A stretch of 20,000 nt of DNA from positions 51,955 to 71,954 of the forward strand of contig MEDY01000325.1 of the NCBI GenBank assembly GCA_001724265.1, written 5' to 3'. A model generated the notes under the pieces. It was not told the origin of the DNA, searched no databases, and was given only the letters and a program-made list of their open reading frames with translations. Position 1 is the stretch's first letter; the number at the start of each line of letters is the position of its first letter. A program made the translations under genes and the position numbers. Below, piece after piece: positions 2,399 through 20,000 of the stretch. This DNA is from Rhizaria sp. SCN 62-66. Lineage: Eukaryota.

Positions 2399-5300
2399 AT
2401 GAGTGATTCTGCTTGTCCCGTTGTGGATGCTGAGAAGGAGGTATGCATTCAACTAGATATTTGTTTTATATTACGTTCTGTTGCGGTTTTGCCACTGAAA
2501 CCTAAGTTCTTATCTCAGCCGCGTGCCCCTCACCTGCCGCTCGCTCACCGCCCTGCTTCCACAACTGTTGTCACATTTGCTTACTCTTTACTGTTACGTC
2601 ACCCTCTATAGGAGAAGAACATGCGCCTCCGCCAGCGCGTTCTTAGTGAGATCACCTCCTCTGAGAAAACCTATCTTACTGACCTCAACAACGTCATTTC
2701 CGTCTACATGGAGGTCCGTTTCCCTGCAAGCATGAGCATCTATCTTGAGCTATATAACTCGATCTACGATTTTATTCACGCGATATCAATCTTCATATTT
2801 CATATATTGCAATGTTTAACAACTGAGCGATCTATTTCATCATTGACTTCTGATATTTATCACTCGAAACTCCCTCCAAATCTCTTCATTGTCTCATCCG
2901 TTCACACTCAACCTTCTTTTTATAACCGTGCATTACACCCGTCTACAGCCTCTCGCGCGCGTTGCCGATGACATTGATAAGCAGGACGCCATTACTGCCG
3001 TCCAGTCCCTTTTTTCTCAGCTTTCTCAGATCCGCTCTTTCCACCAGATTCTCCTGGCGACGTTCGAGAGCTCGGTGACCGCGACTGACTACGCCGACAC
3101 CTTCATCAAGTACTCGGACTTCTTCAAGATGTACACAAGCTACATCAACAGCTACGACCAGCACATGGACTCCGTACAGCTGCTCCGCGGCGTCAAGCGC
3201 CTGAACGCGGTGCTGGACTCTGGTCGCGACAAGCTCAAGGGCCGCGACATCACGAGCTACCTGATCACGCCGGTGCAGCGAATCCCGCGCTTCGAGCTGC
3301 TGCTGCGAGAGGTGCTGCGCTACACGAGCGACGCCGACGAGACGGAGCGCCTCGACTTCGCGCTTGAGAAGGTCAAGGCCATCGCGCTTGTGATCAACGA
3401 GGACAAGCGCGCCGCCGAGCGTAAGTCAAAGCTGCTGGAGCTGGCCGCGACGCTCGTCGACCTCGACAAGTGCCTGCAGACGCCGCTGCTCGAGGCGCAT
3501 CGCCACTTCATCATGGAGGGCACGCTCGTGGACATTATCAAGAAGAAGCCGCGCCACTGCGTGCTCTTCAACGACCTGTTCCTGTGGTGCTCTCTGCCGA
3601 AGCTGCGCGTCAAGGGCGTGGTCAAGCTCGACAAGTCGGTTTTCATGACCCACGGCCAGGACCCTAGTGAAACGCAGGAATTCTCCGTCTCCGATGTCAA
3701 CACGCTCTTCCCCGAGCTCGCCGCCGCTGCTGCCGCGCAGGCCGAGGCCGAGGCCGAGGCGGAAGCCGCCGCCGCGATGTACAACAGCAACGGCTCCGGT
3801 GTATGCGACTACGAGCCCGATTCCCCCTGCTCGGCCGCGGGCGACATGTGGGCCACCGCGGCCGCTGCCGCCGGGCTCGAGGCACCCGCGAACTCCACGC
3901 TGCCCAGCAACAGCTTCGGCGACAGCGGGCTGACCAGTAGCAGCTCTGGCTTCGGAAACAGCAGCAGCTCCAACGACTGCCTCGATCTCGACATGCTGCC
4001 TTCCCCCACCGTCGGCCTCAACGCCAACACCAACAACGCTAGCAACAACGCCAACGGTGGCAACAACACTCCGATCATGATGAACGGCGCCTTTGCCCCC
4101 AACGCCACTCTCAATCTCTCCGCGATCGCCGCCGCGTCCGCCGCCGCCGTGGCGTCCCGCAACTACAGCAACAGCGTCAGCTCCAATGCCTCACAGCCCC
4201 AGTGCCCTAGCACCCCCGAGGTCAAGTCGCAGGCGCCCGAGCTCAAGCCGCTCAGCTCCGCCGACGTGCCCACCGCGGCTGTGGGCCAGGGCAGCCTTGT
4301 CTTCGTGCGCGCCTCGCCCGCCCTCCGCTCGCGCGCGGCGCTGTCTGCGGCGCCCATGTCGCGGCCCGGCTCCCGCGCCGGCTCGCGCGCGCCCTCGCTC
4401 GGCCGCGGCTCGCGCGCGCCGTCGCCCGCGCCCGGTGTGCTCAGCGACGCGTCGCTGCACGTCGAGTTCCGCTGGACCTCCGCGGACCGCGTGCCGCGCC
4501 CGCTCGCGCTGCGCCTCGCCGCCAACTGCCACGAAGACAAGCAGGAGTGGGTTGAGTCAGTCACCGAGGCGCTGCGCGACGTCGCCTGGATTCGCCCCGG
4601 TGCGCTGCCCAACCTCTGCTCGCCCTCGGCCTTCGCCAACGGCGGCGCGGGCGCAGGCGCGCAGTGCGCCGGCACGGGCTCCGGCGTCAACTCGCCCATC
4701 GCGGGCCCTATGGCGGCCGGCGGCACCCCCGGCACCAAGGGCCGCCGCGCCAGCTTCGGCGGCGCCGGCCCTGTCATGCGCTCGCCCAAGCGCTTCTCGC
4801 TGGGCGGCCTGGGCGCCTACAGCACGCTCACCGCGCCCCTCGGCTCCGTGCCCTGCGTGCCCACCTCCGCGGGCACTCCTGGTGCCAGCGGCAGCAGCAA
4901 CGGCTTCATGCCCGCCAACACGCTTGTCACCACGCTCAGCGGCTCCGGCAACGGCGCCAACAGCAGCGCGGTCCCGCTGGTGCGCCCCGCGGTGAGCACG
5001 CCATCGCGCACGGGCACGCCCTCGGCCATGCGCACGTACCGCCCCGTCATGCCGCATCTCGCGCCCGGCGCCGCCGGCGGCAACGCGGGCTTTGGCGCCG
5101 GCACCGCGCCCGCGGCCACGCTGGCCGCCGCGCTGGCCGCGGGCCCCAACGGCTTCGGCAACGTCAACATCGACGGCGTGTCGCCCACCAGCGCTAACAG
5201 CGCTTCGCATGGCGTCTTCGGCGGCAGCGGCGCAGGCGCGATGACCCCGCGCGTCGTCGCCCCGCGCGTCGCGGCCACGCCGCAGCACCAGCAGGGCCGC

Positions 5301-6335
5301 GCCGGCTCCCAAAGCTCCGGCACAGCCCCCGCCGCCGCCATGGCCGCCGCCGCCGCCGCGGGGCTGGCGCCCGGCTCCGCGGCGCACGCGTCCCTCTTCG
5401 GGCAGCCCGCGATGCACCCCGCCACTCCTGGCCCTAGCGCCGGCGCCGGCAGCAGCGCCAACAGCAACGCGCGCACCGTCGCGCGCCGCGCACTGCTCGC
5501 CACCAGCGTGACTAACTCCAACGCCATCGGCGTCGCCGTCGGCGGCGCGACTGCGGGGGCGAATGCGCACGCCGTGGGCACCCCGCGCGCCGCAACCGCG
5601 TACGTCGGCTCGGCCGCGGCCGCCAACAACAAGGCGCCCGTGTTCGGCCAGCCTGCCGCGCTCCCGGGCCAGAAGAAGCAGTTTGCCGTGTCCTCAGCTG
5701 TCAGCGCCAGCGGTCTGCGCCCGCTGTCGCCACCCGGCTCGGGGCCCGGCTCGCCGGTGCGCCAGAGCGTCAGCCCGAACAAGCGCGCCGCCACGGCCGC
5801 CCCCGCGGGCGCCTCGCCGACGGGATTCCGCCCGCGGCTCGCCTCGGCTAGCCCCACCAACGGGCTCTCCGGCCGTGTTGCCGAGCTCAGCATCGGCGGC
5901 GGCGGCGGCGACGGCGACGGCGACTCCCCCGCCAAGCAGCAGCGCCGGCGCCGCTCTGGCGGCCTCAAGAGCCCCAACGCCGCCGCGGCCGCCGGCGGCA
6001 AGCAGCTGCGCTCCCCGGGCGGCTGGAACGTGCGCTCCCCTCTTGCCAACAGCAACGGCAGCAACCAGGAGCCCCCACGCTCGCGCGCGCGCGGCCGTGG
6101 CTTCACGTTTGGTCACGACTCGCCCCCGCCCGCCAGCGCGGCCGGCGCCGACGCCGCTGGTGGGTCCCCGCGCTCGCCCATACAGAACAGTGCGCGCGTG
6201 CACAACCTGCGCTCCCCGCGCGCCGGCGGCAACGGCAACGCGGGCGCAGTCAAGTCTCCCGTCGGCTCGCCCGGCGACTTGATGGGCAAGGAGAACCGCA
6301 AGAGCCGCCGCCGCTCGGGCTGCAACCAGCAGTAA
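2399..6335 (+). CDS. Dbl-family Rho guanine nucleotide exchange factor (DH domain, split PH domain, long low-complexity C-terminus; 1176 aa; exons 2399-2440, 2612-2713, 2949-6335)
   Basis: DH signatures RQRVLSEITSSEKTYLTDL, FFKMYTSYINSYD, SYLITPVQRIPRFELLLREVLRYT and ALEKVKAIALVINEDKR. PH elements RHFIMEGTL, RHCVLFNDLFLWC and LAANCHEDKQEWVESV. Stop is TAA. The first exon (14 codons) is less certain; ATG 2621 is an alternative start. Confidence 0.9.
2441..2611 (+). other. Spliceosomal intron 1 of the RhoGEF gene (171 nt, phase 0)
   Basis: GAG|GTATGC ... CTCTATAG|GAG. Joins MSDSACPVVDAEKE to EKNMRLRQRV in frame. Confidence 0.65.
2714..2948 (+). other. Spliceosomal intron 2 of the RhoGEF gene (235 nt, phase 0)
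   Basis: GAG|GTCCGT ... CTACAG|CCT. Restores the DH helix-1 end VYME-PL. Confidence 0.85.
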
Positions 6336-6969
6336 GTGCAGTGAGCTTTTGAAGTCAAGCCTCCTCAGATGGTCACGTCGTCGCTGCAATTTTTGTTTCG
6401 TTGTTGAATGTATCATCATATGCATTTCAGTTAAAAATGGGTTCTTTTGATTGTTGTTGTTTTTTTGTTCGTTCCTGTTCTTGTCGTCTCTGCTGTCGCG
6501 TGTTTAATCATATTATTTTGTTTCTCAATGTTGGGCTGTGTGCTAATGTGTTGGGTTTCCCATATGAACAAGCATCGCTGTAGTTGCAAAAGCAACAATG
6601 ATGTTGGTCAAGTGCTTGTTTCGTATCTCAAAAGTAGTAGAGGTAATTAAAATCTGTCAACCATGAGTTTTTGCTGTGTTTAAGTGCAACGCCACGTTGT
6701 TTCAAAGAATTGCTTTGTTTGTAACAACAATCAATCCGTTTAAAGTGGTTGTTTCGCCTCCGTTTGCTCTCGTGTTGTTCTCGCTCTCTCAGTTGTCCTG
6801 AGTTTCCTGTTGTTGTTCTTGTGCCTCTGGAAGTTACACTCGCTTTGTATTGCATACTACGCGAGCGCAGTAACGAACAAGACCAGTCGCAAGACCTAAC
6901 ACGACGCATGCATGTAGTAGATATGTGTATGAGTGGCAATGTTTTGTTAATAAAGAGCTGTAATAAATG

Positions 6970-7370: not shown

Positions 7371-8114
7371 AAACTTAGAATGCATTTTTCAAGTAGCATT
7401 TTTTATTATTTGCAATAAAAAAAAACTTCACATATTTCTACTATTAATGTGATATAATTATTGTGTTTATTCTAAAATTAGACTTTGTTTCATCCTTTTC
7501 CACTGTTTACAAGATTTCAGGCGTCTCATTTTTTAATCGAGTAAAGTTAGTTACACCTAGCTTAGTGGGTATCATTTCATGACGCCAACAATATGCACAC
7601 GTCATGATTAGTTGTGGCCGTCACACATTTGTCATTTATCTGGTTGGGTATGAACAACGTGATATACGGACACGTCCTTGCTTTTCTTTGAGCAAGGTCA
7701 GGACGTACTCATGTGTTCAGCTTCCCAGAACAAGACTTACGGTTGTTAAGAAAACGCAAACTTCATGCTTTTAACACGGTCAAATGTATTGTTATAATTA
7801 ATGGATAAGATTTTATTATGAGCAGCATCTTTCATGGCCGGGTTCTAAGCCAAATTAACAGTTGATCGAGTATCATGCCCGTCAAGGAGCGATCAAAAAC
7901 ATCTCGAACACAAACTTAATTCCACATCTAGCATACAAAATATACACAAACAAATAGTGATTGCACATCTAAAATATAAAAAACCGGCCGGCTTCGTATC
8001 CTTGATCTTACGAGGAACGAGTATCTTAACCGTAAACAGAGTTGAGTAAAAGGTCCTAAACTACCTAAGAAGTGCAAGTGCAGCCAAGCTGTTCACTGGC
8101 TTGGACCCCGCCAC

Positions 8115-11100
8115 TCACATCTGGTGCTGGAACTTGATGTTGGCGCTGACGACAACGCCGTCGCGCACGGTCTTAATCGCGGCCGCGAGCGCGGGCACCG
8201 CGCCACTGCGGCCGTTGCGCCGCAGGTACTGGCCCGTGCGCGCGAGCTCTCCCGCCAGACTAGTCAGCGGCTCGGCGGCCGCCGATGCCGAGGTCACTGC
8301 CGCGGCGCGGGCGCGCGCGGAGAGGATCGCCTGCGCCAGCACGCTAGAAGCGGAGCCGGCTGTGGCGGCGGCGGCGGCCGCGGTGGCGGCGGCAGAGGCC
8401 GAGGCCGAGGCGGCGGCGACTGAGGCAGGCGACGGGTAAGCGTAGGCGGAGCTGATCTTGGCAGGAGCGCCAGAGTTCACACTCAAGTTGCTGCCCTTAG
8501 CGCTGCTGAATGCACCCTTAGACGCCGCCGCGCCGCTGTAAGGGGCGGCCTGGCCGTACGCCACGTCGTTTTCGTCGCTGTCGTTGTTGGCCTCGTCGTC
8601 GTAGACAGACCCGCGGGAGAAGCGGCCAGAGGCAGAAGCCCACTGCTGCTGCTGCTGCTGGGCCTGCTGGTAGGCAATGGCCTGATTGTTGCGATATGCA
8701 TTCACCTCAGCGGCAGCGCGGGCCTTGGCGCGCGCGCCAGCGGCAGCGACGGCCTCGGCCTCAGCCTTGGCTTCGGCCTCTGCAGCAGTAGCGGCGGCGG
8801 CAGCGACTGCGGCAGAGACGGCGGCGGCCTCGGCAGCTATCGCGCTCGCCACCTCAGCAGCGCTGTTGTGCTGCTGCTGCTGCTGGTGGTTAGCAGAGGC
8901 GGCCTGCTGAGCCTTCCACGGAGCGCCCCAGCCGCCGACCCCGGCGCCAGCGCCTGCGCTGACAGCTGCGGCGTTGCCAGCCTCCGCGGCGCCGCTGGCG
9001 TCGGGGCTGTTGTTGTTGCTGTGGGCGGGGGCCTGGACGTCGGGCCTGCGCCACGGCTGGTAGTTGTTGCCAACGTCGTCATTCTCGCTCTCGACATCGG
9101 CATTCGCAGCCGGCTGCGGGTTGCTTGCGTTGACGCTAGCGTTGACAGGCGCGAAGCCGGTGAGGCTTACGCTGGCGTGGCCGTGGGCCACCTGCCCGTT
9201 CTGGCCGTGGCTGTAGCCGCCATTGCTGTAGTGATGCTCCGGCTGCGCGAACAGCAGCACGGGCCCCTTGGCCGCCGGAGACATCGGCACCGAGGCCTCG
9301 GGCAGACCCGGCAGCGCGCTCGTCGGCGACATTGGCACACCGCCAGCAGCAGCAGCAGCGCCAGTTTGACCGTGGCTGTGGCCGTGGCTGCGGGGAGGGG
9401 TGACCGTGACAGCGTCAGTGCCGCTGCCAGAGCTCTCCGCGGCGTCGGCCTGGCTCTGCGCGGCGTTGGCGGCGCTGTTGGTGGTGTTGGATGGAGGCAG
9501 CGGGGGACGGGCAAAGGCAGACAGCGGTGGACGCACGTTGGCGATGGCATTGACGCGACTGGCGTCGTTGTTGTTGATGTTGTTGTGAGCATTGAACCCG
9601 CTGGCCGACTCGGTCTGCGCAGCGCCAGCGTGGCTGTGGCTCGGCGCAGCGGCAGCAGCGGCGTTGTGACCGCTGCGAGAGTGATACGAAGGCTGTGCGA
9701 ACAGACAGCTGGGGGAGCTGGGCACGTCCGGGGTCGGGAGGCCTGGAGGTGAAAGTAACAAAAAGGGAGAGTATAGACTCGTAATGAGATTGGTTCAACG
9801 TTAAATAAGATTTCGTAGAAATGGCAATTCAATTTACAGATGGCATGAAAGAGCAGTGATTGTCTAAGACTTTGGTGATCTATATCCACACAAACTTTGG
9901 CGAATGACGTACCAGGCAGGCGAGAGGTGGGACTGAGCAAAGCAGCACCGGCGCCAACGCTGCCATCACAGCCCGCGGCGCCGCTCGCAGCCGCGGCGTG
10001 CGTGTTGTTGGCCGAGTTCATGCGGGACGGGCGCGGCGGCGTGCAGGGGTCAGCCTCTGGGGCCGCGTTCGCGCTCTCCGAGGCGGCGCCCGCGTTGGCG
10101 TTGTGGTGGGGCTTGTTGAACGCGGACAAGGCGGCTAGCCCCGCGCCGTCATGAGCAGCAGCAGCAGGGGCGCCACTGGCGGCGGCGGTTCCAAAAAAGG
10201 CCTTTCCGTCGTCGACGTGCCTGCGGGGCGAAGCGAAGAGCGAAACCGAGGCCGGCGCCGGCAGCGTCGGCAGCGGCGACGACGGCACGGCGGCACTGGC
10301 ACCACCGCTCGCAACAACAGCAGCAGCAGCCTTTGAAGCGCTTGCGTGTTCACTAGCGGCCGTGCTGTTGTTGGCGGCGACAGGAGCGAAGCCGGTCAGC
10401 GAGGCGCGCGTGGCGTTGTTGCCTTGACCCTGGTTGTGGCTGTGCGTGTTGCTGTTGCTCGTGGTGGGCGGCGAGAAGAGCGGCACGGGGGCGCGAGACG
10501 GCGGCGACATCGGCACCGTCGGCTGCGGCAGCGGCGACAACGGGCATGCGGCAGCAGCAGCAGCAGCAGGGGCAGCAACAGTCTCAGTCGCTGAAGGAGC
10601 AGCGACGAAGCCGGAGATGCTGACGTTGTTGGCGCTGGCATTGACAGCGTTGCGGACCGGCACGGGAGGCGGAGGCGCAGTGAACCCAGTGAAGGCACCG
10701 CCATTACTAGCAGAAGCAGCACTGATGTTATTCGCAGCGACAAAGCCACTCTTGGCGTGAGCGCCGCCCTTCGCGGCCTCGGCCTCGACGTCTCTATCGG
10801 CGTCAACACTGTCCATGGTCGCAACGCCGCCACCGCCGCCTGCGCCGTCGCGGAGCAGGCGCGAAATGGGGTGGTTTGACGGGTTCGGCGCCGGAGACCA
10901 GTCCGAGCACTGTGCCGCGCCGAAGTTAGGCCGCCCGCTTGCACCAGCGCCCGACGGAGAGAGCAGCGAGGGCATGCCGTCGACGATACACACGCCATCG
11001 CCAGCGCTGCTGCTGCTGTTGCGGTTCGCGGGGGAAAACGCGTCCGGCGCAGGCAGGCCCGGCAGCGGCGAGCGCAGCGGCGTCATCGCTTTGCCATTGC

Positions 11101-13915
11101 CGGTGCCATCGCCGCTGTGGCTGCGGTGCGCCGCGGCGCCCGTGCCGGGGGCGAGCGAGGCGGGCGCTGCGGCGCGGGCGGGGGAGGCGTACAGGTCGCT
11201 CGTCTCACGGTGCAGCGCCGCGCCCGCAGCCGAGGTCGCAGCAGCGTTGGCGGCAGCGTTAATGTCGGGCGCGAAGGCAGCGGAGGCAGAGGCAGCGTTG
11301 GTGGTGGCGTCAGAGCCCAGGAAGCCGTAACCGTAGCCCTGAACCACCGCGGCGATGGGGCCAGCAGAGCCGGCGGTGACGGCAGAGGCAGCGGGGGCGG
11401 TAGAGGCGGAGACGGCCGAGCCGGGGACCGAGGAGGAGGAGGACGAAGCGTAGGACGAGGTCGTCGAGGGCGTCGGCGGCGTCAGCTGCAGCTGTGGGCC
11501 CTCCCACCGCCGCAGCACCGCAGCTGGGCTCGGCGTCTCCGCGGCGTAAGGGCCTGGCGTGTGAGTACCCTGCTGCCGCTGCTGCTGCTGCTGTTGCTGC
11601 TGCATTTGGGGAGTCGACGACTCGCTGCTCTCCTGGCCCAGGGACTTGCGGCCGGGGGTCTGCGCGGCGCTGCGGCTGCCGTCGTCCGCGCCGTGGTCAG
11701 TCTCGCTCTCGCTGTGACTGCGGCTGTGGCCGCTGCCGAAGCTGTGGCCGTTGAGGCGGTCCTCCGCGGTGTAGGTGCCGCGGGAGGCGTTTGGCGTGAA
11801 AAGCGTCGTGGCCGAGGGCAGGTCTGCAAGCGTGTCGTCCTCGTCCTCGAGGTCGCCGCCGCCGCCGCCGCTGCTGCTGCCGCGGGGAGTGCCGTTGCTG
11901 CTGCTGGCCTTGGGGGGCGTCGACAGGACAGCATCGTTAGCGGCAGCTGCAGCCGTGTTGTCGGTGGCGAAGTCGCCGCTGGCGTTCTCCGCCGCACTGT
12001 ACACCGAGTCAATGCCGAGCTCGGCGGGAATGCCGTTCGCGGTGACAGCAGCAGCGGCAGCAGCAGCGGCGGCGGCGGCGTTGGAGGCGGCGGTGTTAGA
12101 GGCCGCAGTGGGAGAGTTGCCCGCGAGCGACTCCGGCGACGAGAGCAGACGGGACACGGTCGCATCGGCCACGGCACCACCACTGGTTCCGGTGGCACCA
12201 ATGGCAGCGGAGTTTGTGGGGGTCGTGACGGAGGCGACGGCGCTGTCGCCCTCGCACTCGGTGTGGAGCCCGGCGCAGCTCGCGCCATTGCCCAAAGAGC
12301 CGGCGCTGGAGCTAGTGGGAGCGGATGCGACGGAGGTGACAGAGGGGCCTGAGCCTGGGCGGTAAGGCACATCATCCCATGCACTCATGTCAACGGTATC
12401 GGCGTTGTCTTCCCCAACAGCGTCCGCATCAGCCTCAGGCTCAGCGACGGCCGTCGTGTTGTGCGCACTGGGCTGCTTGCTGGAGGGCAGCTCGATGACC
12501 CGTTCGTTACCCCAGCTGACGCGGCGCTTGCACTTAGTGCCTCTGCCGCCTCTGGCACCGTCGCCGTCGCCGTCGCTTTCGCTGCCTGTGCCGTCGTACT
12601 CGTGCACAGCGGTGCCCACGCCCGCACCCGCGCCCGCGCCCGCGGCGGCGGCGGCGCTGCCGTGGTCGGCGGAGGGCACGGGGGACGCGTTGAGCGGCGA
12701 CGACGACGACGATGACCGTGGCAGCGGCCGCTCAGTGTCTGCCAGCGCCACCCACCACGCGTCCACGGCCCCGGCGGACTCAGCGGCCTCGGGCTCGGAG
12801 GCGACAGTAGCGGCCGCCGACTTGGTGATATCTTTGTTGGCTGAGGACGCGTTGGTGCCAGTGTTGGCGCCGGCAGGGTACTTAGAGGCCGTCTTGCCGA
12901 GGCCGACGGTGTAAGTGGCCAGGAGGTCGTCGTCGGCGCTCAGGTTGCTGTCGTCACTATTGGTGCTCACAATGCTCGTGTCGGCAGCAGAGTCAGCCAC
13001 ATTAGCGCCGTTAGCGGTATTACTCGCACTGGAGTTGTTGCTGTTATCGGACATAACCAGGCGGAATCCGCTGCCAGTCACGGTCTTGCTCGCGTTAACG
13101 GTGTTGCTGTTGTTGCTGCTGTTGTTGTTCGCAGTGGCAGCCGGATTGCTCAGACCCAGCGCCTGGCCCAGCGAGGTGCGGCTCGGACTATAGCTACTAC
13201 GCACACTGCTGCCGCCAGCATTGACACTCACACTTACATTCTCATTGGCGTTCGAGTTGGAGCCGTTGACCGCGGGGACCGAGGTGGCGGTGGTGGGGGG
13301 GCGGCGGGTGAACTTCGCGGTCGGCGAGCCCAGCCCGCCCAGCGTCGCGTACTTGGACTGCGCACCGGCACCAGCACCGTTGCCAGCAGACGTAGCAGCG
13401 GCGTCAGCGCCGGAGTGGGCGTTTGAGCTGGCACCATTGGCGTTGACGTGGGCGCGGGAAGCGAAAGCAGACTGGGGCGCGGTGTTGTAGCGGGAGACAA
13501 GGCCCGAGCCCCCGGCGGCGCGGGCGGCCATGGCGCGCTGGCGGGCAAGGCGCGCGGGGGAAATGGGCGCCAGGGTCGAGTCCTCGTCGGCGACAGCGAC
13601 AGCCGCGGGCGCAGCGACAACAGTGTTCATGCTTGCGTCCAGAGAAGAAGTGGGGAGAATGGGAGAGACGACGGCGTCTGGGGGGAACGAGTCGGGCAAG
13701 GCGGAGGAGTTAAACTCAGCGTCAAGGCGCGCGATGGGAGACGCGACCGAAGTGTCGAAGGAGGAAGCAGCGTCGTTGTTGAGGTTGTTGGCGTTCAGCG
13801 CAGAAGCGTCAGCTGAGGCTGCGGCCGCGGCTGTAGCGGAGGGGGCGAAGGCGGAGACAACGCGGGGCGCGTTGGGACTGCGGCCAACGCGCAGGAAAGC
13901 GTGGGGAGCGCTCAT
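8115..13915 (-). CDS. Large Ala/Ser/Pro/Asn-rich, probably intrinsically disordered protein of unknown function (1876 aa; exons 13915-9913, 9742-8115)
   Basis: Two long ORFs (1582 and 548 aa in the track) are joined by an AT-rich GT-AG intron, and the junction recreates the repeated LPGLP motif. There is an in-frame TGA two codons upstream of the ATG. No globular domain recognised; contains KRRVSWG and poly-Q and poly-A tracts. Confidence 0.8.
9743..9912 (-). other. Spliceosomal intron of the large minus-strand gene (170 nt, phase 1)
   Basis: Minus strand CCTG|GTACGT ... TTTCACCTCCAG|GCCTC. AT-rich between GC-rich exons. Confidence 0.85.
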
Positions 13916-14208
13916 CCTAGCTCAGTGGAGAGACAGGAAGGCAGGGGGATGCGCGGAAGCAGGCTGGACGTGGGTGACGGAGAGTGGGGTCGGCTGGGAA
14001 CAGAAAGCGGAGTTACAGCGATGAGAGTTTGCCGGTTCAGAATGTATAAGAAAGTATAAGATACGAGCGCTTTGGAAATATACGATACAAATGTTCAATT
14101 CTAATTTCACAAAATAAATGACCGATTTTTCGATGAAACAACAACAGGCGAATGGCGTTGAGCTCAGCCAGTGCTCTTGCTTAACGGCTAGAAAATCTGA
14201 CTGGCAGC

Positions 14209-14285
14209 CGACTGTGGGCGACTGTGGGCCTTGGCTGGACTGCGGACACCGTGGCGGTGGGTCAGAAGGGGCGAGTGGGTCAGAA
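14209..14285. promoter_or_regulatory. Cluster of four GTGGG-core direct repeats in the 437-bp divergent intergenic region
   Basis: CGACTGTGGG x2 (14209-14218, 14219-14228) and GTGGGTCAGAA x2 (14257-14267, 14275-14285). The repeats are seen directly; a regulatory role is inferred. Confidence 0.4.
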
Positions 14286-14352
14286 TGCAACGTTTTTCTT
14301 CAACCTCACTGAAAAGGGTCTTGCTTCCGTCTATTCCCGCTATACTTGTAGT

Positions 14353-15633
14353 ATGATGGCAGCACGGATGCCTCGTAAAGAGGTATTTAGTGCTTTCAGG
14401 AAGTACTGCTTCGAAAGTGGGCTAGACATCTTCACCCCATTCTCCGTGCGCACCTATAACAAGGCTGTCCCAGAGCCCTACCGCGTTCATACGTTCGACC
14501 GCGCTGACGGCGACTGCGTGGGTATCCTGCTGGGCAACACCTGCCACGCTTGGGAGTTTTTTATCTCCTCCGTCGCCTGCAACGAGGGCTTCCTGGCGGT
14601 GCCGAACCCGTTCGACACGTGGATGACGCAGATCGTCACCGCTGCCGTCGCCGTCGCGCGCCAGGACCTAGAGCCCGAGGGCGTGCAGATGGAGCTCCGC
14701 TTCGCATACGACACTGCGCCCGGGCGCATTATCGCGCTGCAGCGCCTGTGCCACGAGATCGGCTTCGGCCACTACAACCCGTCGCAGGGCCTCGTCGTGC
14801 ACCCCGTGCTGGGCCCGTGGTTCGCGCTCCGCGCCGTCATCCTCCTCGACATGTCGCCCGACGACCCCGCGTTCGACGAGCCCATCCCCTTCTCTACCGA
14901 GCTCGACGCCTGCGTTACCGAGGCCATTGACACGTACTACCAAAAGCCCTCGCTGCAGCGCCCGCTGGCGCGCTCGCCGTGCGACGACAACGGATGCAAC
15001 GACGTCCACAAGGTTCGTGCCACGCGCCTCACCAAACACGACTTTTGACATCCTCAATGCCGTCCTTTAAATGCTATACTTGAGTAGAATTTTCCACTAA
15101 TATTTTAATGTATTATACTGTTGTTTTAACTAACTGCGCATGCATCATTATTGCTAAAATTCTCTTTATCCGTGTTTCCATGCTTCCTTCTCGCGCCACC
15201 CTCCCAGAAAACGATCGCGACCGTGACCGCCGCCGAGTCCAACCCCTCGGCGAGCGAGGCGCAGGTCGCCGCGGCCCTGCACAAGCTCAAGACGGACTCC
15301 GACGCGCTGACCAAGGGTCTGTTCACAGACGCGACTGCGTACCCCAGCTTCGACCCCGCGCTCTGGGCCCCTTCCCGGCGCGATCTGCGCGCGCTGCCGC
15401 TGCGCCTGTGCTGCAACACGGCGCCCGCGTTCACGTACTCGCCCGGCATGGCGCTGTACCACTACACGCATGACCGCAGCATCCTCGCCGAGGAGATCCG
15501 CGCGTTGCGCCACCAGCGCCATCTCATGCTGCAGCGAGAGTACGAAGCCGCCGCGGCCGCTAACGGACACGGCCTCGGCCACGACGGCGACGGCGACCAC
15601 GACTACCTGGGCGGGCTCCTCGTCGACGACTAG
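14353..15633 (+). CDS. MMACHC: MMACHC/CblC-like cobalamin-processing protein (361 aa to the TAG; exons 14353-15012, 15208-15633)
   Basis: The motif order matches CblC: GLDIFTPFSVRTYN, GILLGNT, NPFDTW, IIALQRLCHEIG, VHPVLGPWFALRAVILLD (compare human IHPRFGGWFAIRGVVLL), W...RRD and YSPGMALYHYTHDR. The intron is phase 0. Recognised from memory. Confidence 0.8.
15013..15207 (+). other. Spliceosomal intron of the CblC-like gene (195 nt, phase 0)
   Basis: AAG|GTTCGT ... CCCTCCCAG|AAA. AT-rich and contains in-frame stops. Confidence 0.8.
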
Positions 15634-16923
15634 GACGACGCCGCCGCCACCTCGCTGCACGGCGCGAGCAGCGGTCACACCGGCAACGGTAACGGCAACG
15701 GGGCCGGCGTGCCTGCGACCGACGGTGGCGACGGTGACCTACCCAGCCAGTCCTCCCCCGCGGCCGTGGGCGCCAACGCGGCGCTCTGGGGCGGCAACGC
15801 CGGTGTGATTATCACCAGAGGCGCCAACGCCGCCGCCGCGGCCGCCGTCGTCGCCGCCGAGCTCCAGGCGAGTCCTGTCCCGGCCCACCCGTTCATCACG
15901 AGTCCCTCGAACAACACGCACGTGGGCGGCGCTGCAGTGGTGAGCAACGACTGCGACGAGCCCGCGACTACATCCCGCACCGACCCCCGCGACACCGACA
16001 ACAAGAGCGACTTCGACGCCGCCGAGTACCCCTCCACGTGTTCCTCCACGAGTACCGCCGCCGCGGGTCCCGCGCACCCGGCCAACATGAGCACCAGTGC
16101 CGCCCACAGTCACTACGCCCACAGCCACACTGCGCACAGCCCGGGCCACAGCCACGGCTATGGCCAGGCGGCGCTGCGGCACCAGGGCCACGGTCACGCA
16201 CACTGCCACCCGAGCGCTCCTGCCGGCGCCGCTGACAGCGCGACTGACGCGGCCGATGCGGGCAACGCGAGAGCGGGCGCCGCGGTCGCGGTTGCGGTTG
16301 ACGCCGGCGAGGGCGCCGCCATGTGCGACTCGCCCTTCGCGCCCTCGACCGTGCCCGGCGACGCCAGCGCCAGCCCCGGCGCCAGCCCAGGCTCCAGTCC
16401 CGGCGCGGCCTCGGTCGCGGGCTCGGGCCCCCAGTCGCCCTGCTCACCGTCGCCTGCCACTGTCACGCCTGTACCTGCGGCGAACCTGTACGCCGTGTCC
16501 CCGGCCTCGTCGGGGCGGCGCACGTCCATCTCGCACATCACCAGCGGCCCCTCGACTGCCGCCGCTGCCGCCGCCGCCAGCATCGTCAACAGTAGCTGCG
16601 GCGCCACTGCGGGCGCGAGCGCGGGCGGCGCTGGCGGCCACAGCTGCGGCCGCCGCAGCGTAACTGGCAGCGTGGCGGGTGTGGCGGGAGGGGAGGACTG
16701 CGAAGACATCATTTACGACTCGCTCGGCCACGTCCACCACACGCACGCGCACCCGCATCCGCACGGCAGCGCCGCCACGAACGCTCTCGCTAGCGCTGGC
16801 GCTGGCGGCAGTGGTGCCGCGGCGGGCGCGTGCTGCGGGGGCGGCGCCCAGGCCATCACGAGCGACCAGTTCGACATCAACACACAGGCCGAGATCAACA
16901 CACAGGTCGAGATGCGCGAGTGA
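15634..16923 (+). CDS. In-frame 429-codon low-complexity, His-rich extension directly after the CblC-like TAG (readthrough, recoded codon or nonsense allele)
   Basis: Same frame as exon 2, with no stop until TGA 16921-16923. C/G-ending codon bias and Ala/Gly/Ser/Asn/His composition match the other genes. The AT-rich UTR-like sequence begins only after 16923. Confidence 0.65.
   Translation, partial: DDAAATSLHGASSGHTGNGNGNGAGVPATDGGDGDLPSQSSPAAVGANAALWGGNAGVIITRGANAAAAAAVVAAELQASPVPAHPFITSPSNNTHVGGAAVVSNDCDEPATTSRTDPRDTDNKSDFDAAEYPSTCSSTSTAAAGPAHPANMSTSAAHSHYAHSHTAHSPGHSHGYGQAALRHQGHGHAHCHPSAPAGAADSATDAADAGNARAGAAVAVAVDAGEGAAMCDSPFAPSTVPGDASASPGASPGSSPGAASVAGSGPQSPCSPSPATVTPVPAANLYAVSPASSGRRTSISHITSGPSTAAAAAAASIVNSSCGATAGASAGGAGGHSCGRRSVTGSVAGVAGGEDCEDIIYDSLGHVHHTHAHPHPHGSAATNALASAGAGGSGAAAGACCGGGAQAITSDQFDINTQAEINTQVEMRE
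16872..16913 (+). repeat. 18-nt tandem duplication encoding DINTQA-EINTQV-EM
   Basis: CGACATCAACACACAGGC / CGAGATCAACACACAGGT / CGAGAT. Confidence 0.8.
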
Positions 16924-16945
16924 GTGTGTGTGTGAGCGCGTGGGT

Positions 16946-16985
16946 GGGGAACACGTGGCGGCTTGGGAAACACGTGGCGACTTGG
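16946..16985. repeat. 19-nt tandem duplication, each unit containing CACGTG
   Basis: GGGGAACACGTGGCGGCTT / GGGAAACACGTGGCGACTT / GG. Confidence 0.8.
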
Positions 16986-17100
16986 TTCCAAGCACGCGCA
17001 ACACGCGGCTTGCCTTTTTGTTCTGATAACCCCTTCTATTGGCTATCTTTTCTCTCATTTGGCTCTTGATTGCGTTCCTTTGTATCATTGCTTTCCTCTT

Positions 17101-17124
17101 TCTCTCTCTCTCTCTCTTTTTTTT
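17101..17124. repeat. (TC)8 microsatellite followed by T8 in a pyrimidine-rich 3' region
   Basis: TCTCTCTCTCTCTCTCTTTTTTTT, read directly. Confidence 0.85.
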
Positions 17125-18124
17125 CTTGATTCTTAGCTTTATCGCTTTATAGCTCTCTTGTTTTTAAGCTTTCTTGCTATCTCTTCTACTTTCCCGCTCT
17201 ATCATCCCCACAGTGTCCCTCTTTCCCGTTCTCTCTTTGCGACCTCGCCCTCTCTACATATCTATTCACCTTTTTTTCCCCGACACACACCCCGTCACTA
17301 CACCTGTCACACTTACATTTGTTTCTTTACATTTGTTTGTTCGTTCACACGTACCGTACATTAGCCCGTCTTTTAAATAGCGCTTCTTCATCTATACCAC
17401 ATGTCATTGATGACATGTTTTCATCTCATGTACTCTCACCCCATCCATGTACATGTTTCGCCACAAAACAAACCAAAACAAAACAAGACAAATCCCCTCA
17501 AAAATCTCGTCACATTGCAACATCCACGCTTTTTTTCTTTGTTTCATTCACAACAATATTGTGTCGCAAAAGCTACTCGAAAACACCCAACAAACTTGTT
17601 CTTCATCAATGCCACAGTGTTTGAGTTGAGTTCTTTGTCCTTTTGCTCTGTGTACGTAACCTACAGAGGTTGTTTGTCTCTTGCTTTATTTCTTGCTTGT
17701 TTTCTTGTTTGTTACAGTCAGAGGCACATTTGTTGCTTCTGCTTGTGGGTCGCTGCGTTTGTTTTTGTGGATTTCTTCATTATTTTTATAGCAATCATTA
17801 CTAAACTTGTTATCATCACATCACATAATCACCACCAGCTTCATTAGCAACAACGTTTATTTATCTTTATAGCTCCCCTTTTATGTTTTTGTGCTTTGAG
17901 TTCACTTTATTGAAGGATACCTCCTGCAATATCATCAAATTTCTTCTGTTTCTCGTTGGCTGTTGTTAACATGCTTTTTCTTGACTTTACGTTTCCGGGG
18001 TTGTGCTTATTCCGATTTCGTTTTCAGTTTCTTTTTTTTGTTCTCTCTTGATTGTGGTTCGATGCATCTGTACCCGTATCATTAGTATTTATCGTTATTG
18101 TTCGTTCGTAACACACATCACGCG

Positions 18125-18935
18125 TCACAAACACACATCCAACAGTGCTTCAAAACAATCAATGCAATACACCGAAACAACCTTTGTTACCGAAACTAAT
18201 TTCCATTCAACGTTACACGGGAATCCGATAGCATTGGCGACGTTGGTTGTCATGTCGAGTGCATATGCACAACGTAATGACGATGACTGGTAGTCGCAGT
18301 CGCCACTCAACGAATTTGGCCACGCAGCGATCCGACAGCCACATTGCATTGGAAGTTGGAAGTACAATTCACTCGTTAGATTCATCGTAGTTTTCTTTGC
18401 AGCGGACGTTTCCCGATAAAAAAATGGTGCACACATTAACCCCGATTCTTACTTCATCGTTCGAGCTGCTTAATGTATTCGTTTTCACCATTTTTATTCC
18501 TCCCTCGCGTGTCGCCCCTCTAACTTTGCTTCCCCGCGCCTCAGTGCTCATGTTGGTTGTCGCATCACCTATCTTTGTGCCTCCGGGGTTTACCTTGTTG
18601 TCGTCAGCTTCTATGCATTTTGCACACTTGCGTACCGCTCGTTGATATCGCGGTGTAAGTCCGTCATTGCCTCTCCCAAACATAAGGTTCGGCGCCCGGT
18701 CCCAACTCCTCGTTCGTGTTGTACAAAGCAGAGCGTAATCGACACTGTTGTCTTCCGTTTCAATGCCACAAACAGAAAGCTCTACCTGATGCACTTGTGG
18801 GGCGCAGTTTATGACTGCTTTGACTGCCTCCGCAGTGACGAGCGTCGCCTCCATCAATGGCTTGAACAAATATTATTACTGCGTATCGCAACCCTGCTAT
18901 CGTACTCTCGTCGCTGCAGCGCGACTTCGGTCACG
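18125..18935 (-). mobile_element. Possible highly degenerate LTR-retrotransposon gag/protease relic
   Basis: Frameshifted minus-strand fragments occur in gag-pro order: ALQ..DES....YA...FKPL...EAVKAVIN (reminiscent of the gag Q...ES..Y..RF..L motif), a basic/Gly linker, HHFFIGKRP (weak knuckle remnant) and FEALLD (protease-like ALLD). Composition differs from host exons. No LTRs or RT seen. Confidence 0.3.
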
Positions 18936-20000
18936 CCGCGACGCTATGACACTAGGTATGGCACTACGACCCCAGGTGTTGTTGTCGCATTGCCAACTGT
19001 GTTGCTGTCTGCTCTAGGTTCGAATCACCAGCGCTACGAGGGCCACCGCATACGTACCGCGCACGTGCGTGTGCCGTGACAGACGACGCAACACTAAGTA
19101 ATGGTTCGCTTGCTTGACTCGGCTTGAGGCTCGGCCGTGGGAGTATGTGTGCGAGCGCTTGCTTGCTAATAGCGTGGCGATGCCGCCGAGGTGTGCGTTG
19201 CAAGATGCCCGGGTGGGGCTTGCGCTTGTTGCAGCATCAAGATCGTCAGAGTTCTTATGCAATGTCATGACATAAACAGTGACATAGCGTTGCGTATCTT
19301 GACACTAAAGTGGCTATTGCAGACGAACGAGTGCGCGCGCTGACTTCTTGTGGCCACTCTGGCTCTCGCTTGAGCTGTTCGCTTTCGGCGCCTGCCGTCG
19401 CAAAACAGTATTTCCGAGATCAAGCTCGTTGCACAGGCCATACGAGTTTGAGGAGGCAACCAGCGCGCGGTTTTACTTCCTACGATATCAGAGATGAGTG
19501 AGGTATTACGTTTTGCAGTGGAGCTGGCGTGCGTTGTCCGTTTCTCGATCGTCGTCATCTGTATGATGATCACATTCTCCACATTCTGTACCGCCCACGC
19601 CTATCATCGTACCTTCATGCACGCGACTTACCGTGGTTACAACCCCACTCCGGAGCACACTGCTGTCACACCTGACGCCATATATCCTTGGCTTGACGTA
19701 CTGAGCCTGTTGCTCAATCGGATGACTGACTGACGTCATCAACGGTGGTGTGTGATCATTGTTCATACGGTACGCTAATGTCTTTGCGCGATTATGCTGA
19801 AGGAGCGGGCTTGATCCTCATCTTGATGTTTGTCGCGTCGACCTGGTTTCACGCCTGATCTTTTCTGTGACCTTGCGGTCGTTTTCGTTCTGCCAAGTCA
19901 CGTCACACGGGGGTCGCGAATTGGGCCGTTTGCCTCTCCCACCCCACATGTTTGTGATGTTGAGGCACCCCCCATCCCCAATAAACATCCCTAGATTACC

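Follow-up and report, generated by a model that had tools for sequence, protein, structure and literature searches.

Proteins of the MMACHC/CblC family have been described structurally in human (3SC0, 3SOM, 5UOS and 7WUZ), as cyanocobalamin reductase and alkylcobalamin dealkylase, and in C. elegans (5UJC). Stop codons within otherwise open reading frames are also known from several systems. Several protist lineages read TAG as an amino acid, and in-frame TAGs are numerous in their genomes. A strain-specific premature stop in an otherwise intact gene is reportedly seen in the FLO8 nonsense allele of laboratory yeast. The classes of readthrough described in PMC4615788 include the viral type III signals, which combine UAG-G with a pseudoknot, and yeast pairs of open reading frames (ORFs) parted by one stop; readthrough is also described there for the peroxisomal isoforms of human LDHB and MDH1 and for more than 280 Drosophila and metazoan genes. 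The subject of the present analysis is a 20,000-nt stretch of DNA (the window) from contig MEDY01000325.1 of Rhizaria sp. SCN 62-66, an uncultured, GC-rich wastewater eukaryote sequenced in a metagenome. On its plus strand, a genuine CblC gene at 14353-16923 carries a single in-frame TAG behind its conserved domain, and the reading frame then continues over a further 429 codons. The TAG is a real, well-described anomaly, for which recoding, splicing and a second gene are unlikely explanations.

The locus resembles each of these systems only in part. It shares with the human and C. elegans CblC proteins the family profile, the fold and the C-terminal block; cobalamin binding and decyanase/dealkylase activity are putative. 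Only about 20% of its residues are identical to human MMACHC, and the protein differs from the family in having about 70 extra residues between the core and the C-terminal block and a 429-codon tail behind the TAG. As in readthrough genes, one stop lies between a complete functional domain and a coding-looking in-frame extension, and the tetranucleotide is UAG-G. Unlike in those genes, neither a significant downstream structure nor a known hexanucleotide motif is present. An extension of 429 codons is very long for the readthrough class, and there is no resemblance to a peroxisomal signal where the long frame ends. The literature that surfaced for MMACHC together with stop codon readthrough contained only human disease alleles, which are not relevant here. 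With FLO8-type alleles, the locus has in common a single nonsense codon, an otherwise intact ORF and an undecayed downstream coding signature, whereas here the catalytic domain is left whole and only a disordered tail is lost through the stop, and the sense allele was not seen in the four sequencing runs compared. Like the TAG-sense codes, it shows an in-frame TAG within coding-looking sequence, but there is only one such TAG in about 3800 codons.

All coordinates of the two-exon gene and its extension were re-derived from the window and proved correct, as did every number that the first-pass annotation had given, the ATG at 16087 among them. Exon 1 (14353-15012) begins with ATG 14353 and encodes the core of the MMACHC/CblC-like domain in 220 codons. 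It is followed by an intron of 195 nt (15013-15207; GTTCGT...CAG) with a GC content of 0.41 and an in-frame stop, TGA 15046. Exon 2 continues to the TAG with 141 codons (15208-15630), which comprise the C-terminal block of the family (residues ~264-322, nt 15337-15513) and then about 40 low-complexity codons. The TAG itself (15631-15633) is codon 362, in the context GAC GAC TAG GAC GAC. The extension (15634-16920) ends at the terminal TGA of the long frame (16921-16923); a second in-frame TGA lies four codons on, and the GC content then drops. With the TAG counted, the frame is 791 codons long, of which 361 precede the TAG. The first in-frame ATG 3' of the TAG is at 16087 and is preceded by 151 codons of the extension. 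Splicing of the intron is probable by homology: exon 2 carries the C-terminal block in the correct frame, and this block matches the ends of the homologues, which supports the intron model. No clean 15012/15208 splice joint was seen among the RNA-library contig joints listed. In public protein sets, the locus is stored as two prokaryote-style ORFs, 14224-15048 (P0002; 274 aa, GTG-started, running into the intron) and 15709-16923 (404 aa, GTG-started). Neither of them is the real gene model.

The TAG is real, and a base-calling or assembly error is excluded, because an independent DNA run carries the identical sequence. The stretch is present, whole or in part, in sixteen public runs, those labelled X7-X18 carrying small word shares; the run with the largest share may be the source. 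The contigs of four other runs, comprising DNA and polyA-RNA runs, were compared with the window at a likeness of 90; as all of these are contigs, they do not allow depth, transcript ends or rare variants to be judged. A 1712-nt contig (record 7) of DNA run X3, which comes from another study, matches 14987-16698 with 0 differences and 0 gaps. The base-calling error that had been offered as one option in the first-pass annotation is thus rejected. None of the four runs lists another letter at 15631-15633, with coverage of the site shown for X3 only. The strains are nearly identical across runs (X4 differs from the window at seven listed places), and for this reason the identity of the runs is uninformative on the age or conservation of the TAG. 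The joint table of the same comparison is dominated by GC-rich low-complexity matches, with 15 joints listed and 397 more, and the loose contig ends number a further 2520 beyond those listed. An X4 contig begins to fit the window at 15208, with 8 unlike letters before (at 15207), and the fit of an X5 contig begins at 15376, preceded by 15 unlike letters; strain variants or chimeric ends of contigs may account for these unmatched starts.

The sequence behind the TAG retains the same-frame codon usage and third-position GC content (GC3) of the real exons and still looks fully protein-coding. Exon 1 has a GC content of 0.62/0.44/0.85 at codon positions 1/2/3, exon 2 one of 0.70/0.50/0.91 and the extension one of 0.68/0.68/0.86, and no 150-nt segment of the extension has a GC3 under 0.80. 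Two other ORFs of the window served to train a codon-usage log-odds scan, which was run in overlapping 180-nt segments over 15211-16920. Frame +0 was best in 15 of 19 segments; three stayed under the threshold, and the minus strand was chosen in one. Scores peaked just 3' of the TAG, at 41-48 bits per 60 codons, and the coding signal also fills 15634-16086, 5' of the first ATG. The earlier observation that codon bias and composition do not change at the TAG is therefore borne out (GC3 goes from 0.91 to 0.86), and so is the contrast with other stops, after which the DNA had been said to become AT-rich: the GC content of the 150 nt following the TAG is 0.77, in comparison with 0.41, 0.39, 0.45 and 0.54 behind the four terminal stops. 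The openness of the frame carries less weight. Only 50 of 20,000 mononucleotide shuffles of the extension stay open, while 906 of 20,000 do so when the composition at each codon position is kept. Openness of 429 codons beyond chance is thus only moderate evidence, and it is the codon periodicity, rather than openness alone, that provides strong evidence.

By family profile and by modelled fold, the gene is a true MMACHC/CblC relative. Exon 1 alone reaches 20.7 bits (E 3.5e-4) against Pfam PF16690, for which the cut-off is 27 bits. The same profile behaves unevenly over the family: among 15 homologues scanned, eight scored above the cut-off, five below it and two had no match. NCBIfam returned no family for this protein or for four homologues. 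An exhaustive search of 1.84 billion representatives found 712 homologues at E<=1e-3, the best of them, apart from the window's own ORF, at 35% identity. A profile built from the protein and 49 homologues matched the human MMACHC chains among solved structures at E 4.4e-22 (positions 1-232, full length). The AlphaFold2 (AF2) model of exon 1 has a predicted local distance difference test score (pLDDT) of 88.1 and a predicted template modelling score (pTM) of 0.81, and shows the MMACHC fold with its nitroreductase-like core. In a Foldseek search of this model against the PDB, all 20 matches at E<=0.001 were MMACHC/CblC (template modelling score, TM, 0.61-0.67), followed by nitroreductases at E>1e-3. 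The label CblC/MMACHC-like given at first pass is therefore clear from the profile and the fold, with the Pfam match of exon 1 sub-threshold.

The end of the domain was located with phmmer; the query was the protein after splicing, in which X stands for the TAG. A second stretch of the query, at residues ~264-322, matches the C-terminal ends of homologues, with independent E-values such as 7.4e-6, 1.6e-4 and 2.6e-4. It corresponds to a block of the type W..W..RDA...RYS..Q..YHY in exon 2, which aligns to human MMACHC and is set off from the exon 1 core by the approximately 70 extra residues. The homologues end near residue 322 of the query, and the TAG lies about 40 codons further 3'. Because this block matches the ends of the homologues, the conserved domain is complete before the TAG, as had been proposed earlier. 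The median length of the 149 best homologues is 252 aa, and not one of them reaches 700 aa.

The tail encoded behind the TAG is disordered, is rich in alanine (23%), glycine (13%) and serine (13%), and resembles the tails of the other proteins of the window. Histidine makes up 6.1% of it, in comparison with 2.0% of the other tails, which is three times higher (Fisher p 8e-6). The His residues form three clusters, at residues 520-530 (16105-16137), 545-554 (16180-16209) and 728-739 (16729-16764) of the 791-codon frame. A Gly/His/Asp-rich low-complexity stretch begins about 25 codons 5' of the TAG and continues past it, with His at 5.7% before and 6.1% after the TAG, which places the TAG inside one compositional unit. 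The ESM Atlas model of the 404-aa ORF in the extension is unfolded (pLDDT 0.35). In-frame tandem repeats are found at 16872-16913 (18-nt unit) and 16367-16406 (12-nt unit), and these short repeats show growth of the tail through repeat expansion.

Relatives of the tail and of exon 1 were sought in several collections. The extension had no Pfam match, the ESM Atlas held only the window's own ORF and no usable look-alike, and no homologue was found among proteins of 235-751 aa, where scoring covered the 8000 candidates with most words in common. Exon 1 was compared with 5.8 billion clusters, which returned only the window's own ORF and one match at 30% identity, and with metagenome and genome contigs, where 213 and 157 pattern matches, respectively, gave no confirmed one. 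Across these contigs, the clusters and the 1.84 billion representatives, no relative closer than 35% identity was found.

The evidence from RNA libraries is thin and fits either a nonsense allele or readthrough. Part of the extension (15719-16057) is matched with 0 differences by one contig of a polyA-RNA library, and no RNA contig bridging the TAG at 15631 is present among those listed in the comparison at likeness 90. Intron position 15162 is covered by a contig of the X5 polyA-RNA library, at least 110 nt from the contig end, and this contig carries there the same C>A variant as the DNA-like run X4 of the same study. This coverage reflects either retention of the intron or carry-over of DNA into the library. 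The contig in the extension is deeper than the one over 15162, but contig depth cannot rank parts of the gene.

Taken tentatively, the reading that we favour is that the TAG is a recent, tolerated nonsense allele at which translation stops. The locus would be, or would very recently have been, one gene for a protein of about 790 residues, with a complete MMACHC/CblC domain (residues 1 to ~322, encoded in two exons) and a long disordered Ala/Gly/Ser/His-rich tail. A single base change would have turned a sense codon within the acidic run into the TAG at codon 362. Among its single-step neighbours, GAG (Glu) would be the likeliest original codon, as the commonest acidic neighbour here. The TAG allele would then have become fixed in the sampled, nearly clonal population. 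After the change, the product would be an enzyme of 361 residues, about the normal length of the family, with its domain intact, so the loss of the tail would be tolerated. The 1287 nt 3' of the TAG would be a young, undecayed former coding region that now belongs to the 3' untranslated region (UTR). The direction and the age of the change, as well as the stopping of ribosomes at the TAG, are inferred rather than observed.

Several lines of evidence favour such an allele. Frame, GC3, codon usage and the Gly/His/Asp composition run continuously over the TAG, which favours one coding unit. A tail of this kind would also be in character, as the RhoGEF tail and the minus-strand gene of the window have the same Ala/Ser/Gly/Pro bias. 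The GC3 of the tail (0.86) is at the level of translated exons, while the untranslated stretches examined are all AT-rich, and this fits recent translation at full rate better than a low leak. The real base at the TAG and the completeness of the domain before it, with homologues that end near residue 322 and have a median of 252 aa, point in the same direction. Sense neighbours one step from TAG are common, with GAG 89, CAG 96 and TAC 49 times among the 3402 trusted codons of the window (its other exons and the CblC exons), and favour a nonsense change. Finally, no readthrough signal stands out around the TAG. The RNA fold of 15631-15750 is not significant (z -1.0; an equally good fold is reached by 28 of 200 shuffles), a motif of the CAAUYA or CUAG type is absent, and of positions -1 and -2 only one is A (judged by the context rules of PMC4615788). 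The missing structure and motifs speak for the nonsense allele and against readthrough alike.

Other observations weigh against this reading. The tail has about 470 codons, and the TAG comes after only about 40 of them, at the point where the end of a short isoform would be expected; a random tolerated nonsense change so early in the tail is expected in about 8% of cases. No second stop or frameshift has accumulated in 429 codons, so a nonsense change would need to be very young, although 906 of 20,000 composition-keeping shuffles are open as well. The His clusters specific to the tail hint at a function under selective protection. None of the four runs lists a sense allele at 15631-15633, in strains that are nearly identical, and nothing in the window shows TAG as a terminator, with none of its four terminal stops being TAG. 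UAG-G is, in addition, the leakiest UAG tetranucleotide reported in yeast in Table 1 of PMC4615788, and it is the tetranucleotide of the viral type III signals. Most of these points speak for programmed or efficient leaky readthrough, a possible explanation only somewhat less likely than the nonsense allele, by which one mRNA would yield mostly the 361-residue CblC protein and, through a near-cognate amino acid at the TAG, a fraction with the 429-residue His-rich tail. Such a gene would show a full coding signature that stays in frame behind its stop, as is seen here and not in the DNA behind the four terminal stops, and the same holds for a stop placed about 40 codons beyond the conserved domain, where the homologues end, and for a tail without decay. 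The polyA-RNA contig at 15719-16057 is also in keeping with it. Conservation, on the other hand, cannot lend support, with no relatives found in the collections searched, and no RNA contig among those listed crosses the TAG. An extension that is rarely translated would probably have a weaker codon bias than the one seen. In yeast screens of single-stop ORF pairs, reportedly only a minority of pairs is read through efficiently, which was also weighed against this explanation. A somewhat broader proposal, that the mRNA gives two forms of the enzyme, a 361-residue CblC ending at a leaky UAG-G and a 791-residue form made by efficient readthrough or context-dependent decoding of TAG, is possible, though less likely than not. 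The three His clusters of the 791-residue form could serve in metal binding or in tethering of the enzyme.

The remaining explanations are each much less likely. If TAG were a rare or context-dependent sense codon of a variant nuclear code, the gene would simply encode 791 residues, the full-strength coding signal after the TAG would be accounted for at once, and the use of TGA (three times) and TAA (once) as the terminal stops of the window would be in line, with the caution that four stops are too few to show avoidance of TAG as a terminator. Nevertheless, the 3402 other trusted codons contain no in-frame TAG, where a usage of 0.3% predicts about ten, and the absence of a tRNA gene within the window leaves the idea without positive support; it is very improbable. 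Of the recoded TAG suggested at first pass, general recoding is thus unlikely, yet the absence of TAG among the four terminal stops still stands on its side. Removal of the TAG from some or all transcripts by a GC-rich in-frame intron (exitron) or by alternative splicing is formally possible, given that 163 in-frame GT..AG pairs span the TAG and the TAG itself ends in AG. However, 15208-15640 contains no donor like GTTCGT, GTACGT or GTGAGT, the types of this window, the sole loosely donor-like site (15540) would shift the frame, and no TAG-removing joint is found among the 15 listed. The known introns of the window are AT-rich (0.41), while codon periodicity continues straight across the TAG, and splicing of this kind is therefore quite unlikely. 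An equally poor prospect is that of two genes or a nascent fusion, in which a 361-residue CblC gene would be followed by a low-complexity gene in frame by chance and with a lost or hidden start. Chance alone would give the same frame in one case of three, the family normally has about 250 aa, and the RNA contig of the extension is the deeper one, with the limit on contig depth given above. Against it, there is no AT-rich spacer, unlike at every other gene boundary in the window, and the same unusual Gly/His/Asp composition lies on either side of the TAG. The coding signal in 15634-16086, ahead of ATG 16087, agrees with the earlier judgement that a separate downstream gene is unlikely. An artefact in the wide sense, including a chimeric join or an allele that is minor in the population as well as base-calling or assembly error, can be imagined for a metagenome assembly, in which GC-rich low-complexity DNA is hard to assemble. 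With an independent run of another study identical over 1712 nt and no other letter listed at 15631-15633 in the four runs, it is hardly credible.

Exons in the window are GC-rich (0.65-0.80), and introns and spacers are AT-rich (about 0.4 GC). Among its other genes are those for a RhoGEF and for an RNase PH-type subunit of the exosome, and the minus strand carries a very large gene of low complexity. The RhoGEF ORF (2847-6335) has 1162 codons with the RhoGEF domain at residues 51-184 only, and the minus-strand gene (8115-13921) has two exons and about 1900 codons without a Pfam family; both consist mostly of Ala/Ser/Gly/Pro low complexity. Long disordered tails are thus the rule in this organism. 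The Rfam scan of the window gave no match at gathering score.

The four terminal stops are TGA 1761, TAA 6333, TGA 8115 (minus strand) and TGA 16921. Three of them are followed by GTG (TAA GTG at 6333-6341, and TGA GTG at 8109-8117 on the minus strand and at 16919-16927), and the fourth reads TGA ACA (1761). The three GTG-followed stops sit in GTAAGT/GTGAGT hexamers that resemble splice donors, and use as donors was rejected, as the downstream DNA is AT-rich and has no coding signal. The GTG may reflect a preference in termination context or chance. Just past the terminal TGA of the long frame, at 16945-16985, a GC-rich 19-nt unit is repeated 2.2 times and contains the palindrome CACGTG; an AT- and pyrimidine-rich stretch lies beyond it. 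The DNA at 17100-20000 is AT-richer (0.37-0.57 GC) and holds ORFs of 150-200 codons that give no signal in the GC-rich codon model.

A practical lesson can be drawn from this locus. Prokaryote-style gene callers store it as two unrelated ORFs, and as a result, the real two-exon CblC gene is invisible in public protein sets. For the biology of the family, the meaning depends on the fate of the tail. If the tail is translated, the locus would offer a clean example from nature, in an unsampled lineage of protists, of an enzyme of B12 trafficking that is extended at great length by readthrough. In the case of true readthrough, it would be the first readthrough-extended CblC, with a stop context outside the classic motifs. 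If the TAG is a young nonsense allele, the event would be an ordinary one, and it would show that long low-complexity tails can be shed while the catalytic domain is left untouched.

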